64,000 nt of DNA from contig CAZKBS010000001.1 of assembly GCA_964551435.1 (NCBI GenBank), forward strand, positions 143,565 through 207,564, given 5' to 3'. Under the pieces are notes generated by a model that searched no databases, was not told where the DNA came from, and worked only from the letters and a program-made list of their open reading frames with translations. This DNA is from an uncultured Micavibrio sp. (GTDB lineage: Bacteria; Pseudomonadota; Alphaproteobacteria; Micavibrionales; UBA2020). Position 1 is the stretch's first letter. Each line of letters starts with the position of its first letter. A program made the position numbers and the translations under genes. This document shows positions 10,848 through 35,935 of this stretch, one piece after another.

Positions 10848-11945
10848 TCAGCGGCGCTGCTGGCGCGCACGGCGGCGCGCCTCGGCGGCGGCCTTGCGTA
10901 TGGGATCAAGCTCTTCCTGCTTTTTCGGCTCCGCGCTGGCAGCTGGGGCGGCGGGTTTTTCCGCAGCCGGTGCCGCGTCTTTTTTCGCGCCCGTGTTGAA
11001 ATCGCCCGCAGCGGGTTTTTCAGCCAGCTTTTGCGCAGGCTGCGCGGTCTGGCGCACATCTGCGCCATAGCTGTCATCAAGCGGTTTATAGAAGGGTTTG
11101 CGGTTTTTGTTGCCGCTGTTGTCGTTTGCCGCCGCGCCTTCGCGCAGTTTGTTGCGGCATACCAGACCCGCCGCGATGCCCGCGGGAATAGCCAGCGCAA
11201 CAACGGCCGCCGCGCCATAAATAGCCGCCGCCGCGCCGATGCCAACCGTCGCCGCCGCCGCCGTGAGCGTACCCATGACAGACGATACGACACCCGCCGG
11301 AACAACCGCCGCGCCCGCCGCCTGCGCCGCGGCAAGGCCGCCGACCGCCGCGCCCGCGCCGGCCACGCCAAAGCCCGTCCATTTAACGGTATGCAGCAAC
11401 GCTTTTTTCACGCTGGCGAAAACACGGCCCAGACGTTTTTTGAGGGTGCCGTTTTTCTGATGATCCAGCCATTCAGCTTCGCGCTCGCGCATGAAATTGC
11501 GCACGGGCATGGACTCCACACCCGCTTTCCAGCTGCGCCAAGTGCGCAAACCGAAATAGCCCGTCGCTGCGATGGCGCCGATGGAAACCCATGTCGTCAT
11601 GACGGGCGTCAGAACAAATACAGCCGCCGCCGCCGCGCCGTATTTCGCCGCCGATATCCAGCGGTCCTGCGTGGAAATGCGGTTTTTGTTGTCGCTCTCG
11701 CTCGGACGGATGGCGCGAAAAGCGTTGTAACCCGCCATGCCGACCAGACCCGCCGTCGCAATCGGCAAATAGGTCAGCACAAGACCAATTTGCTGCGTGA
11801 TCAGATACGTCGCGCCGCCCGACACGCCCGTGCCCGCCGCCGAAGACACCAGCGGTTTTTGCTGTTTGGTTTCGAAAATGCCTTTGGTCTTCTGCCAGAA
11901 ATACCAGAGCTTGCCGGGGGATTTGCCTTCGTAGCTGACGCTCAT
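10848..11945 (-). CDS. Gly/Ala-rich multi-lobed hydrophobic membrane protein with charged tail (Inc-like)
   Basis: Three long G/A-rich hydrophobic blocks, for example GFGVAGAGAAVGGLAAAQAAGAAVVPAGVVSSVMGTLTAAAATVGIGAAAAIYGAAAVVALAIPAGIAAGLV. Followed by a K/A/P/E-rich disordered C-terminus. Confidence 0.7.
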   Translation of the reverse strand: MSVSYEGKSPGKLWYFWQKTKGIFETKQQKPLVSSAAGTGVSGGATYLITQQIGLVLTYLPIATAGLVGMAGYNAFRAIRPSESDNKNRISTQDRWISAAKYGAAAAAVFVLTPVMTTWVSIGAIAATGYFGLRTWRSWKAGVESMPVRNFMREREAEWLDHQKNGTLKKRLGRVFASVKKALLHTVKWTGFGVAGAGAAVGGLAAAQAAGAAVVPAGVVSSVMGTLTAAAATVGIGAAAAIYGAAAVVALAIPAGIAAGLVCRNKLREGAAANDNSGNKNRKPFYKPLDDSYGADVRQTAQPAQKLAEKPAAGDFNTGAKKDAAPAAEKPAAPAASAEPKKQEELDPIRKAAAEARRRARQQRR

Positions 11946-12064
11946 GTTCTTGCCTTTACTTATCTGGTTGTATGCGCGGCGCGGCCCTGACAGGACGGCG
12001 GGTGGCGCATCGAATCTTGCGAATGAAAACAGGCCCAGTATATTGCCATAATAGGTAAAGTCAA

Positions 12065-12087
12065 AGTATTTTTAGGTTAAAAATACT
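12065..12087. repeat. Perfect AT-only 10-bp inverted repeat
   Basis: AGTATTTTTA, spacer GGT, TAAAAATACT. Located between the end of the ankyrin gene (12110) and the start of the 10848..11945 gene. Confidence 0.5.
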
Positions 12088-12109
12088 CAATAATAACATA
12101 TACTTAATA

Positions 12110-12742
12110 TCACTTCGGGCGGCGCGGATGCAGCTGCACAACCTTCAGGGGCACGATGTCGCGCTGAAGCACGCAATTCTGTTCAAACAGCCGCGCCCGC
12201 GTCGCGGCGGCATCGGCATCGCGGCGCTGCCCGAGCACCGCCATGAAACTGGCAAATTCTTTCGGCGGCAAATGTTCGCGCGCGAGAGATTCGGCATCCT
12301 CGCCTTTTTTGTTCACAACATCCAGCGCCGCCCCCGCCGCCGCCAGACGGCACGCCGCCCAGCCATGACCGGCACGCGCCGCTTTCATCAATGCCGTATC
12401 GCCGTGAATATCATCCTGCGCATCCAGCGCGGCGCCGGATATCAGCAGTTTTTCAACCGCGCCGCTCAGCATTTTTGCACAGGCAAACATCAGTGGCGTC
12501 TCGCCCGCGGCCGTGACCACGTCATGGCGCGCGCCATGGTGCAGCAGCAGCGCCGCGTGTTCTTCGTGCCCGTTTTCAAGTGCGTAGAGAAGCGCGTTTT
12601 TACCGGCGATATCTACGGCATCAATCTGTTTTTTATGTCTGGCGATTTCTTTATGCAGCGCGGCAAGGTCGCCATAGGCCGCCGCGGTCAGCAGCGCTTG
12701 CGGCGGCTCGGCCGCTTTTATTTTAAACGCACCGCGCAGCAT
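12110..12742 (-). CDS. Ankyrin-repeat protein
   Basis: Repeats include GKNALLYALENGHEEHAALLLHHGARHD, GETPLMFACAKMLSGAVEKLLISGAALDAQD and GDTALMKAARAGHGWAACRLAAAGAALD. Its start overlaps the stop of the upstream gene by 1 nt (TGATG). Confidence 0.85.
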   Translation of the reverse strand: MLRGAFKIKAAEPPQALLTAAAYGDLAALHKEIARHKKQIDAVDIAGKNALLYALENGHEEHAALLLHHGARHDVVTAAGETPLMFACAKMLSGAVEKLLISGAALDAQDDIHGDTALMKAARAGHGWAACRLAAAGAALDVVNKKGEDAESLAREHLPPKEFASFMAVLGQRRDADAAATRARLFEQNCVLQRDIVPLKVVQLHPRRPK

Positions 12743-34174: not shown

Positions 34175-34274
34175 TTATACGCGCACCGCCGCGGCGCGCA
34201 TAAAGCCACTCCCTTTACTTTTATGACGCCGCGCCGCATGCTGGCAGTGAAAAGATTTTTGGGGAATTTTTTGC

Positions 34275-35033
34275 ATGAAAATGTTTTTGGTCTGTCTCGC
34301 GCTTGCCGCCGCGATGTGTCTGCCTGCCTTCGCGCGCGCAGCCGATGTCGCCCTTCCGGCAGCGGGCATTTTGAACATTCCCGCGGCAGGGCTTGGCTAT
34401 ATGCTGGTCTTTTTTCACGAACTCGGCCATACCGCCGCGTTCTGGCTGTTCGGGTATCCGGCGGTGCCGACGTTCGATTTCACGTATGGCGGCGGCTATA
34501 CGCATGCGCAGGCACAATCGTGGTTTATTCTGGGGTGCCTCTGGACGGCGGCGGTTCTTCTGGGTGCGCGGCTGTGGCAGGACATGCAATACCGCGCCCT
34601 GATGTGGCTGGGCGGTGGCGTGCTGGTACACGGTGCCCTGATGCTATGCGGCGGAGACATGATTGTCATCGGCTTTGCCGGCCATGCTGGCGAAGTATTG
34701 GTGGCCGCGTTTTGTTTGCTGCGCGCTTTTCTGAACACGACAGACAAGGCGCGCGGCGCGGCGGAGCGCTGGCTGAACATGCTATTTGGCTGTTTCGTTC
34801 TGCTCTATGACACGATTTTTACGGCCGCGCTGATGTTTGATGATGCCAGCCGTGATGTGTACGCCGCCCAGAAAGGCGGACATCTGGAGGGTGATCTTGA
34901 CCGCGTCGCCCTTGCGCTGCATGTGCCGATGCCGGCGGTTGCCGGATTTTTGCTTTTGGTGACCTGGGCCGTTTTCGCCTTTGCCATTATTTACGGGCGC
35001 AGGCACGCGCCCCATGCGGAATATCCGGCCTAG
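34275..35033 (+). CDS. Membrane protein with HELGH motif (M50B-like intramembrane metalloprotease candidate)
   Basis: Signal-like N-terminus. FFHELGHTAAFWLFG lies within a hydrophobic helix. Several further TM segments. Later GDLD. Confidence 0.6.
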   Translation: MKMFLVCLALAAAMCLPAFARAADVALPAAGILNIPAAGLGYMLVFFHELGHTAAFWLFGYPAVPTFDFTYGGGYTHAQAQSWFILGCLWTAAVLLGARLWQDMQYRALMWLGGGVLVHGALMLCGGDMIVIGFAGHAGEVLVAAFCLLRAFLNTTDKARGAAERWLNMLFGCFVLLYDTIFTAALMFDDASRDVYAAQKGGHLEGDLDRVALALHVPMPAVAGFLLLVTWAVFAFAIIYGRRHAPHAEYPA

Positions 35034-35050
35034 ACGGACATCAAGCCAAG

Positions 35051-35935
35051 TTAGGCCGTGGTGCCGCCCGCTGGCGATGCATTGCGGCGACGCAGATTTG
35101 TGCTGATTGGTTTAATCGCGATATCCTCGTCAAGCGCACCGGCTTCGGCGGCGCGTTTACTGGCCACTATATCAAACTCGTTTGCTAATTTTTCTTCGAG
35201 CATTTCAGCGAGCGTCACACGCTGTTCTCCCGTCATCCTGTCGATGTCTTTCATCATTTTTTGCTGAGGCGTTTGCGGAGATGATGCGCTTCTCTCCAGC
35301 CTATCGATAAGGGCTTGCTGTGTCTGCGCAGGCAATGTGCTGAAGTCCTTGCATATACGAAGCACCTTTTCATCCTCGATGGCCTTTGCCGAAGGAGGCA
35401 CCGCCGCCGGCTGCGCGGGCGCGGGCGGAGAATTTTTGAGCTGCTTGTGATGTTTAAGGGCCTGCGCCGTGCCGCCAATAACGCCGGGTACAACGCCGAC
35501 CACGACACCAACGACAACCGCGGCGGCAGCAATCGTCGTCGCCAATACAACCGGGGCAGCCAATACCGCCACCGTCGCGGCCGCGATGCCGGCCGCGCCT
35601 GTTGCGGCAACCTGAGCCACCACGCCAGCGCCTGCAAGGCCCGACCATGTACCCGCCCCGGCTGCAATACCGGCACCCAACCCGGCAAGTGCGCTACCGA
35701 TACCGTTTATGATGTTTATTTCCACAAAACTGCTATCGAAAATATTGCGGTAGATACGCGAGATGCGCGAGCGCTCCAGCTCGCGTTGCGTGCGGTATTT
35801 ATCGTTGAAAGCATCCTTGACCGCATAGACATAACTGCCCGTCGCAGTCAGCACCGTCATAGCTATATTTTTAAGCGGCTTGGTCAGCGGCGCCGCATAG
35901 GGGTTTGCCCAGAAATCTTTGAGTTTTTTCAGCAT
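35051..35935 (-). CDS. Gly/Ala-rich hydrophobic-domain membrane protein (Inc-like)
   Basis: About 80-aa G/A/V block (GIGSALAGLGAGIAAGAGTWSGLAGAGVVAQVAATGAAGIAAATVAVLAAPVVLATTIAAAAVVVGVVVGVVPGVIGG), followed by a polar helical tail. Confidence 0.65.
   Translation of the reverse strand: MLKKLKDFWANPYAAPLTKPLKNIAMTVLTATGSYVYAVKDAFNDKYRTQRELERSRISRIYRNIFDSSFVEINIINGIGSALAGLGAGIAAGAGTWSGLAGAGVVAQVAATGAAGIAAATVAVLAAPVVLATTIAAAAVVVGVVVGVVPGVIGGTAQALKHHKQLKNSPPAPAQPAAVPPSAKAIEDEKVLRICKDFSTLPAQTQQALIDRLERSASSPQTPQQKMMKDIDRMTGEQRVTLAEMLEEKLANEFDIVASKRAAEAGALDEDIAIKPISTNLRRRNASPAGGTTA

Follow-up and report, generated by a model that had tools for sequence, protein, structure and literature searches.

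Do the glycine- and alanine-rich hydrophobic proteins encoded in this stretch of an uncultured Micavibrio sp. genome stay in the membrane of the cell that makes them, or are they delivered into the membrane of another cell? The stretch analysed (the window) comprises 64,000 nucleotides of contig CAZKBS010000001.1, positions 143,565 to 207,564, and the question is raised by four of its genes, here called A, B, C and D (Table 1). The sequence-only reading which drew attention to them had proposed a family of effectors reminiscent of the Inc proteins of chlamydiae. We find that A to D are real, conserved genes, and we give about an even chance to the reading that their products would be new families of transmembrane effectors of a type IVB secretion system (T4BSS, the Dot/Icm system), Inc-like in architecture only. 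Of the readings considered, that of a secreted membrane effector has the best support: a T4BSS flanks the window, the proteins have tails that are enriched among the ankyrin proteins of the genome, and their predicted topology matches that of published T4BSS transmembrane effectors; linkage, accessory distribution and fast divergence point the same way. This much of the earlier interpretation stands, while kinship to Inc proteins falls away and the machine is of type IVB.

The genome has a guanine-cytosine content of 58%, which explains the long open reading frames (ORFs) found on the strand opposite A to D; gene calling by codon usage, with this genome as the training set, preferred the minus-strand ORFs over the overlapping plus-strand ones in all four cases. 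Two other public assemblies, whose genes were called independently, contain the string C-B-OsmC-Ank-Ank-A with the corresponding proteins in unchanged order. Our distribution sample of 41 related genomes, which covers eight families of the order, contains orthologs of each gene in 14-21 genomes, nearly all of them without internal stops (the exceptions are a TGA codon in one B ortholog and stops in some weak D matches). Gene calling, public gene calls and orthologs thus back the four ORFs that had been proposed on the minus strand. The proposal that three of them share one minus-strand island with osmC and two ankyrin genes is likewise upheld: the string with its two ankyrin genes is kept across the genus and the A-B-C neighbourhood across genera, with D about 25-30 kb away.

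The window is bracketed by secretion genes. DotB, DotC (TraI-type) and DotD are encoded 3-6 kb upstream of it (C1:137.9-140.7 kb), and a TrbI-like DotG, DotH and two DotI/IcmL proteins 10-14 kb downstream (C1:217-221 kb), which places A to D between two dot/icm clusters in a stretch of about 76 kb. The genome has two to four DotI/IcmL copies, and a TrwB-type coupling protein is encoded by an 895-residue ORF on another contig (C2:194944); a search with the Pfam VirB4 model found no VirB4-type system. DotC is present in 38 of the 41 genomes and in all eight sampled families, so the T4BSS is ancestral to the order. Since the machine is order-wide and A to D occur in part of one family, the four are lineage-specific accessories and not machine parts.

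The second line of evidence lies at the C-termini. We scored the last 12 residues of proteins for a tail with at least two Lys/Arg, no Asp/Glu, at least three Pro/Gly and at most one hydrophobic residue. Of 2200 proteins with 80 residues or more, 97 have such a tail at the C-terminus and 16 at the N-terminus; for random internal 12-mers the figure is 4.4 +/- 2.2. The 2.47-Mb genome has 59 ankyrin-repeat genes, or 2.6% of all genes (120 Ank_2 matches), and their products are strongly enriched in tails (18 of 59, versus 79 of 2250 others; odds ratio 12, p=5e-12), as are the proteins with the hairpin architecture described below (5 of 12, p=7e-5). A net charge of at least +3 in the last 15 residues is likewise found in 66% of ankyrin proteins and 21% of the others.

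B and C end in the same form of tail (Table 1), which recurs in C paralogs of another genus (R..NGPK/Q). The D tail, DIAIKPISTNLRRRNASPAGG, represents a second form, hydrophobic-x-hydrophobic-x-P-x(1-6)-hydrophobic-[RK]3, which is present at 25 C-termini, many of them of ankyrin proteins, versus 0.8 expected internally; only this contrast between C-terminal and internal positions is a fair test, because the pattern was derived from examples. The tail of A is Arg-rich and helix-like, and in other genera '..RF(N/G)' comes after it. The basic character of the tails is kept in the orthologs of all four proteins, so the shared basic tail that had been noticed by eye is both conserved and specific to C-termini (97 versus about 4 expected). 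Because they share their basic tails with ankyrin proteins of this genome, A to D are probably cargo of the Legionella-type injection machine, and the two sets of proteins likely take the same export route.

The third line of evidence is topology. Kyte-Doolittle profiles (19-residue window, at least 1.4) delimit the hydrophobic blocks listed in Table 1, those of D falling at residues 73-93 and 99-160. The main blocks are 45 (B), 57 and 57 (C), 69 (A) and 62-88 (D) residues long. Gly and Ala account for 53% of the transmembrane (TM) segments of A to D versus 21% in the polytopic membrane proteins of the genome (p=3e-7), and small-xxx-small motifs have a density of 0.15-0.37 in the main blocks of at least 45 residues versus a median of 0.07, making these blocks two- to fivefold richer (the two shorter blocks of A have densities of 0.06 and 0.18). 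There are almost no charged residues inside the blocks, and basic residues flank them. Prolines are found at positions 114, 216 and 254 of A, 82 of B, 84 and 210 of C, and 128 and 150 of D; the two in C are invariant or nearly so among its orthologs, and those in A, B and D line up within the respective ortholog sets. In B and C the prolines are positioned at predicted turns of about 2-7 residues, as placed in C by AlphaFold2 (AF2) and deduced in B from block length and proline position. Gly/Ala-rich blocks split by a short turn, as described from the sequence, are thus recovered as 45-88-residue blocks with conserved prolines. The bilobed hairpin with both ends on the same side, one in B and two in C, is borne out as an architecture, with termini that are probably cytoplasmic.

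Past the last block, C-terminal extensions of 100 (A), 153 (B), 94 (C) and 134 (D) residues follow. A proteome-wide search for further members, which had been suggested as a check, found this architecture in 12 of 2309 predicted proteins, and four of the 12 are among the 63 genes of the window (hypergeometric p=2e-4). Some ten proteins of the genome have both a hairpin block and a basic, Pro-rich tail; the six besides A to D are encoded at C2:24265-24636, C3:30359-30862, C3:31030-31632, C3:31670-32272, C4:45001-45576 and C8:46041-46628. Published T4BSS transmembrane effectors mostly have one or two spans, 70-80% being N-in/C-in, with periplasmic loops of under 30 residues (half of them under 11), C-terminal tails of more than 70 residues, a C-terminal signal that has to lie on the cytoplasmic side, and an inner-membrane intermediate (PMC12981334, PMC11602083). 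In their predicted structure, B and C fit all the structural points among these, and A and D fit those that can be judged.

Ortholog alignments show a common plan. A conserved N-terminal segment of 40-70 residues precedes one or more hairpins; these are followed by a juxtamembrane helix that is conserved, a Pro/Ala/Lys-rich linker of low conservation and a conserved end. The flanks had been described as charged, coiled-coil or disordered. This holds for the charged helix of B and for the disordered linkers; elsewhere the flanks carry conserved short motifs and are not generic coiled coils throughout. One such motif, [D/E]-F-N-x-x-A (the FN motif), lies 30-50 residues from the end in A, in C and in the paralogs of A, and its Phe in C (F292) does not vary in three alignments and hardly varies in a fourth. 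The AF2 model of C, made with 31 sequences (predicted local distance difference test score, pLDDT, 66), displays two helical hairpins with turns of two and seven residues, a soluble mini-domain at residues 140-177, which is better predicted, and a short helix that covers the FN motif. In the model of D (pLDDT 56) the hydrophobic region is poorly predicted and the helical C-terminal domain at about 180-265 is confident.

The FN motif is also seen in a neighbor of the island. An orphan double-AAA+ ClpB/Hsp100-like protein of 944 residues, encoded at 2445-5279 on the plus strand and conserved next to the island in relatives, has a C-terminal extension with a basic stretch rich in Pro and three DFN motifs (GADFNPV, AADFNASA and GNDFNA), the short motif of A and C. 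That this protein might handle or extract tail-bearing cargo is pure speculation.

We wondered whether A to D form a single family, as had been proposed. All-against-all BLASTP of the four proteins found no similarity, and tblastn against the genome found no further copies of any of them. Profile-profile comparison of the ortholog alignments, with reversed and locally shuffled controls, gave high probabilities for A with C, A with D and B with C, the first two exceeding their controls. We claim homology for none of these pairs: the B with C match (85.7% probability) is equaled by its reversed control and is a compositional artefact; the confident part of A with C is, after realignment, the 17-residue FN motif only; and the reciprocal hidden Markov model matches of A with D lie within the Gly/Ala-rich block and have high bias. 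Judged by these comparisons, A to D are alike in architecture and are not one sequence family, the links of A to C and to D being weak; the term family therefore holds for the architecture only.

A does have two true short paralogs of 200 residues each on another contig (C3:31030-31632 and C3:31670-32272), which match it outside the membrane parts, in the N-terminal 'KLWY..TKG.F' and juxtamembrane '..Y.R.qE.kW..' segments. They belong to a set of four co-oriented genes (C3:29252-32272), the other two encoding a zincin-like HExxH protein and a 167-residue hairpin protein; all four products have basic Pro/Gly-rich tails, and the two paralogs of A have the FN motif.

Scans of A to D against Pfam-A and NCBIfam (E of at most 0.1) returned no family at threshold and no Inc family, Pfam IncA included, and the homology to chlamydial Inc proteins that the resemblance had suggested is thus not seen in these databases. 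Conserved membrane families of free-living bacteria, such as holin or YtxH-like proteins, to which A to D might instead have belonged, gave no match either. The best NCBIfam match was PspM for C, with 24 bits versus a cut-off of 80. Searching PDB sequences with the C and D profiles gave no match, and Foldseek comparison of their AF2 models with the PDB returned generic helical bundles only (E>0.7). An Rfam scan of the window and an exact-sequence contig look-up of C gave nothing useful. A homolog of C with 60% identity (P0017) has a precomputed Pfam match, PF25587, which the C of the window does not show.

In the sample of 41 genomes, A occurs in 18, B in 18, C in 21 and D in 14. All of these belong to the family of the window, except for two weak C matches in one further family. 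No A, B or D was found in the other seven families (16 genomes) or in one genus of their own family (five genomes), and the three are thus limited to some genera of that family. Searching 1.84 billion representative sequences with the C profile returned 128 clusters at 50% identity; at 90% identity there are 41 clusters for C, 26 for B and 14 for D. The few named matches of the searches with B, C and D are all annotated as 'hypothetical protein', and all named relatives are metagenome-assembled genomes (MAGs) called Micavibrio sp., Alphaproteobacteria bacterium or Rhodospirillaceae bacterium, or (mis)labeled Bdellovibrionales or Patescibacteria. In the searches made, homologs were found in Micavibrio-like MAGs only. 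Another genus has tandem arrays of three to four diverged C paralogs (L045, G022:C98:25000-34000; L046, G024:C25:1-10000), all of which keep the FN motif and the R..NGPK/Q tail. Relative to a genome of another genus, housekeeping neighbors are 67-82% identical, A to D 29-42% and an ankyrin gene about 40%: A to D diverge as fast as the ankyrin gene.

If A to D are T4BSS cargo, they would first insert into the inner membrane of the cell that makes them, as N-in/C-in hairpins with outer turns of 2-7 residues, since the hydrophobicity of their Gly/Ala-rich hairpins equals, on a crude scale, that of ordinary inner-membrane segments. The basic Pro/Gly-rich tail, and in A and C also the upstream FN motif, would then be offered to the coupling-protein complex by the long C-terminal extension on the cytoplasmic side. 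Next the proteins would be drawn out of the membrane to its cytoplasmic side and sent through the machine, a route suggested for SidF-type effectors of Legionella, and would re-insert into a membrane of the target cell with both ends in its cytosol. There the N-terminal motifs, the juxtamembrane helices and the helical domain of D would engage target factors, and the small-xxx-small-rich helices would favor tight packing or oligomerization.

Several observations weigh against export. The basic Pro/Gly-rich tail appears to differ from the known Dot/Icm signal of Legionella and Coxiella, and what would tie the tail to the T4BSS is enrichment and linkage only. The Pfam IcmS model matched nothing in the genome, although it matched no control genome either. 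AF2 confidence is moderate for C and low for D, and the hydropathy of A, like that of D together with its AF2 model, allows more than one count of spans. A to D are inherited vertically in a syntenic block and have no eukaryote-like domain of their own in Pfam or NCBIfam. The cultured Micavibrio aeruginosavorus is an epibiotic predator reported to have no type IV secretion system (PMC3189940). Effectors might further be expected to have weaker TM segments which evade the signal recognition particle (SRP). In a Krampen-type test of this, A to D do not: their median TM hydrophobicity is 1.63 versus 1.69 in resident membrane proteins (p=0.33), a crude comparison that used Hessa-type scale values with no correction for position or length.

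It is accordingly possible, if doubtful, that A to D are never exported and act as resident inner-membrane proteins: lineage-specific envelope, polar or secretion-associated scaffolds whose linkers and C-terminal peptides dock on an internal hub. Because their TM segments are not less hydrophobic than those of resident proteins, such a role is fully compatible with them, and insertion by SRP and YidC is to be expected; the conserved cytoplasmic motifs, together with the vertical inheritance and missing eukaryote-like domains noted above, also suit a resident protein. The hydrophobicity test is nevertheless non-discriminating given the two-step model of export (PMC11602083), and inner-membrane localization alone would be no refutation of export, because transmembrane effectors of Legionella reside there as intermediates and can still be exported later (PMC11602083). 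A membrane scaffold would also not account for the same C-terminus-specific tails on dozens of soluble ankyrin proteins, which suggest a shared export or recognition route; nor does it sit well with divergence as fast as that of ankyrin genes, or with the absence of A to D from most T4BSS-bearing relatives searched, which argues that they are not machine parts.

It is quite unlikely that A to D are contact-delivered antibacterial toxins, whose glycine-zipper-like hairpins would be injected into bacterial prey, oligomerize, and depolarize or permeabilize its inner membrane, as would suit the predatory habit of cultured Micavibrio. The hairpins are indeed very rich in small-xxx-small motifs. Such motifs are a feature of several pore-forming peptides. 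The tandem C paralogs of another genus resemble toxin diversification, the relatives are labeled Micavibrio and some Bdellovibrionales, and attachment to the prey is how cultured M. aeruginosavorus feeds (PMC3189940). However, no small immunity-like gene is evident within the C-B-osmC-ank-ank-A string, the producer would itself have to survive insertion in its own membrane, a simple pore would not need long conserved cytosolic domains and motifs, and 59 ankyrin genes are a load typical of eukaryote-associated bacteria (PMC3563639). It is very improbable that A to D are small core inner-membrane Dot/Icm components (DotE/IcmC-, DotP/IcmD- or DotV/IcmV-like) diverged past recognition: their hydrophobicity is about what such components would show and dot/icm clusters lie on both sides of their genes, but they evolve far faster than the machine genes and have the tails of ankyrin proteins, and the near-universal DotC set beside the restricted A, B and D contradicts a core role, which we disfavor.

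The reading of A to D as exported membrane effectors can be extended to a more detailed picture that, taken jointly, is unlikely. The order of Micavibrio-like, presumably predatory or protist-associated bacteria might use a chromosomal Dot/Icm system with a signal grammar of its own, A to D and about six other hairpin proteins being its membrane-inserting cargo. The signal might consist of a basic Pro/Gly-rich C-terminal tail, sometimes after [D/E]-F-N-x-x-A, and be read without IcmS/IcmW. The cargo might be taken from the inner membrane of the predator, possibly by the ClpB-like AAA+ neighbor with FN motifs, and implanted into the membrane of the attacked prey bacterium or protist, which it might remodel or breach.

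If A to D are exported, transmembrane type IVB effectors are not confined to Legionella-like Gammaproteobacteria but extend to an uncultured lineage of Alphaproteobacteria with bacterial predators among its relatives, and A to D provide several new compact hairpin families with which to study how hydrophobic cargo leaves one membrane and enters another. The genome would also offer a candidate non-Legionella secretion signal, which marks about 100 proteins in 2.5 Mb and is easy to test for that reason. If they are not exported, they are conserved membrane proteins of a poorly known group and of modest interest.

Table 1 Genes A to D, their main segments and the genes between them (positions in the window; residues numbered from the N-terminus of each protein).
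Feature	Position	Strand	Description
Gene A	10848..11945	minus	365 aa; supported by ORF list, codon-usage gene calling and orthologs; N-terminal motif MSVSYEGKSPGKLWYFWQKTKG; hydrophobic blocks 52-73, 97-128, 197-265; juxtamembrane VRNFMREREAEWL segment; DFN motif; Arg-rich tail
A residues 197-265	11151..11357	minus	main Gly/Ala-rich hydrophobic block, 55% Gly+Ala; conserved Pro216 and Pro254
A residues 315-320 (DFNTGA)	10986..11003	minus	short FN motif, common to C and to the A paralogs on contig C3
Ankyrin-repeat gene	12110..12742	minus	210 aa; in the A-B-C gene string; tail ...VVQLHPRRPK
Ankyrin-repeat gene	12742..13236	minus	164 aa; tail ...SPLAVRKRAP; one-base overlap with downstream neighbor
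OsmC-family gene	13237..13662	minus	141 aa; between B and the ankyrin pair
Gene B	13713..14486	minus	257 aa; N-terminal motif TRLARMMLPDIDPHSALLPTNKWI; one 45-aa hairpin 60-104 with turn at Pro82; conserved helix KNKYLEMKANELKRAWQERA; Lys/Glu/Ala-rich charged helix; tail PRKNAGPKNG
B residues 60-104	14175..14309	minus	bilobed Gly/Ala-rich hairpin, 58% Gly+Ala, no charged residues inside
Gene C	14596..15588	minus	330 aa; hairpins 55-111 and 180-236 around conserved soluble linker 112-179; FN motif; tail ARKNIAGPKS
C residues 55-111, hairpin 1	15256..15426	minus	AF2 helices 53-82 and 85-125; 2-residue turn at nearly invariant Pro84
C residues 180-236, hairpin 2	14881..15051	minus	AF2 helices 179-208 and 216-267; turn at invariant Pro210
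C residues 290-296 (DGFNAAA)	14701..14721	minus	FN motif; predicted short helix 289-300 inside disordered tail
Gene D	35051..35935	minus	294 aa; N-terminal motif FWANPYAAPLTKPLKN; 88-aa Gly/Ala/Val-rich hydrophobic region 73-160; conserved helical C-terminal domain ~180-265; tail DIAIKPISTNLRRRNASPAGGTTA
D residues 73-160	35456..35719	minus	hydrophobic region with Pro128 and Pro150, invariant G151 and G155; predicted 2-4 membrane spans
D last 22 residues	35054..35119	minus	tail motif (hydrophobic-x-hydrophobic-K-P-x3-5-L-R-R-R) in common with C-termini of ~24 other proteins, many ankyrin-repeat

The genes around the four have some features of their own. Divergent from gene A, at 10163-10753 on the plus strand, lies a gene for a repressor with helix-turn-helix and peptidase-S24 domains (LexA/CI-like), which is syntenic in other genera (44-45% identity) and could regulate the island. 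At 5466-9381 on the minus strand is a run of small and large genes without family match (154, 609, 122, 89 and 164 residues), several of whose products end in basic Pro/Gly tails such as ...GRKNSGPGGPR and ...PKGPRGPKPGY. Convergent with D is a plus-strand gene (34275-35033) for a 252-residue polytopic protein with a HELGH motif and a weak M50-like match, which adjoins the D ortholog in other genera too and is duplicated in one of them. Upstream of it, at 32567-34174 on the plus strand, a DUF6782/M78-like putative peptidase has the basic tail ...RTAPGPKAP.

How do A to D compare with known systems? Small Gly/Ala-rich membrane families (glycine-zipper 2TM / Rick_17kDa_Anti, YtxH, GlsB/YeaQ/YmgE, holins and PspM) have similar paired helices with many small-xxx-small contacts. 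A to D match none of them at Pfam or NCBIfam thresholds, are much longer, have conserved cytosolic motifs and tails, and are limited to Micavibrio-like MAGs from part of one family.

Chlamydial Inc proteins, such as IncA, have a bilobed hydrophobic hairpin of about 40-60 residues with termini expected to be cytosolic and little else that is recognizable, and comprise many unrelated families with the architecture alone in common. The resemblance that was first noted is therefore apt for the bilobed hairpin, and fails for sequence, signal position and machine type: A to D have no match to Pfam IncA or another Inc family, Inc proteins are type III substrates with N-terminal signals whereas the signal-like element of A to D is C-terminal, and the machine found here is type IVB, a type III injectisome not having been searched for. 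The relatives of A to D are, moreover, all uncultured MAGs.

The Dot/Icm ankyrin effectors of Legionella (Ank/Leg) and Coxiella (Ank) have their counterpart in the ankyrin proteins of this genome, two of which are co-encoded with A, B and C in one gene string and many of which share the tail motif of D. A to D themselves have no ankyrin repeats and are membrane proteins, not soluble adaptors.

The closest parallel is with the transmembrane Dot/Icm effectors of Legionella pneumophila and Coxiella burnetii, such as SidF (PMC11602083, PMC12981334). A to D differ from these in that neither sequence nor fold relates them to a known effector, in their basic, Pro/Gly-rich tail, in a genome in which IcmS was undetected (by a model that, as said, matched no control genome), and in belonging to an alphaproteobacterium of a predatory lineage. 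They resemble them in being encoded alongside a Dot/Icm-type machine and in their simple hairpin topology, with both ends probably cytoplasmic and outer loops of a few residues. Like them, A to D have C-terminal extensions of more than 70 residues with a C-terminal signal-like element and a hydrophobicity sufficient for an inner-membrane intermediate, and are lineage-specific and fast-evolving.

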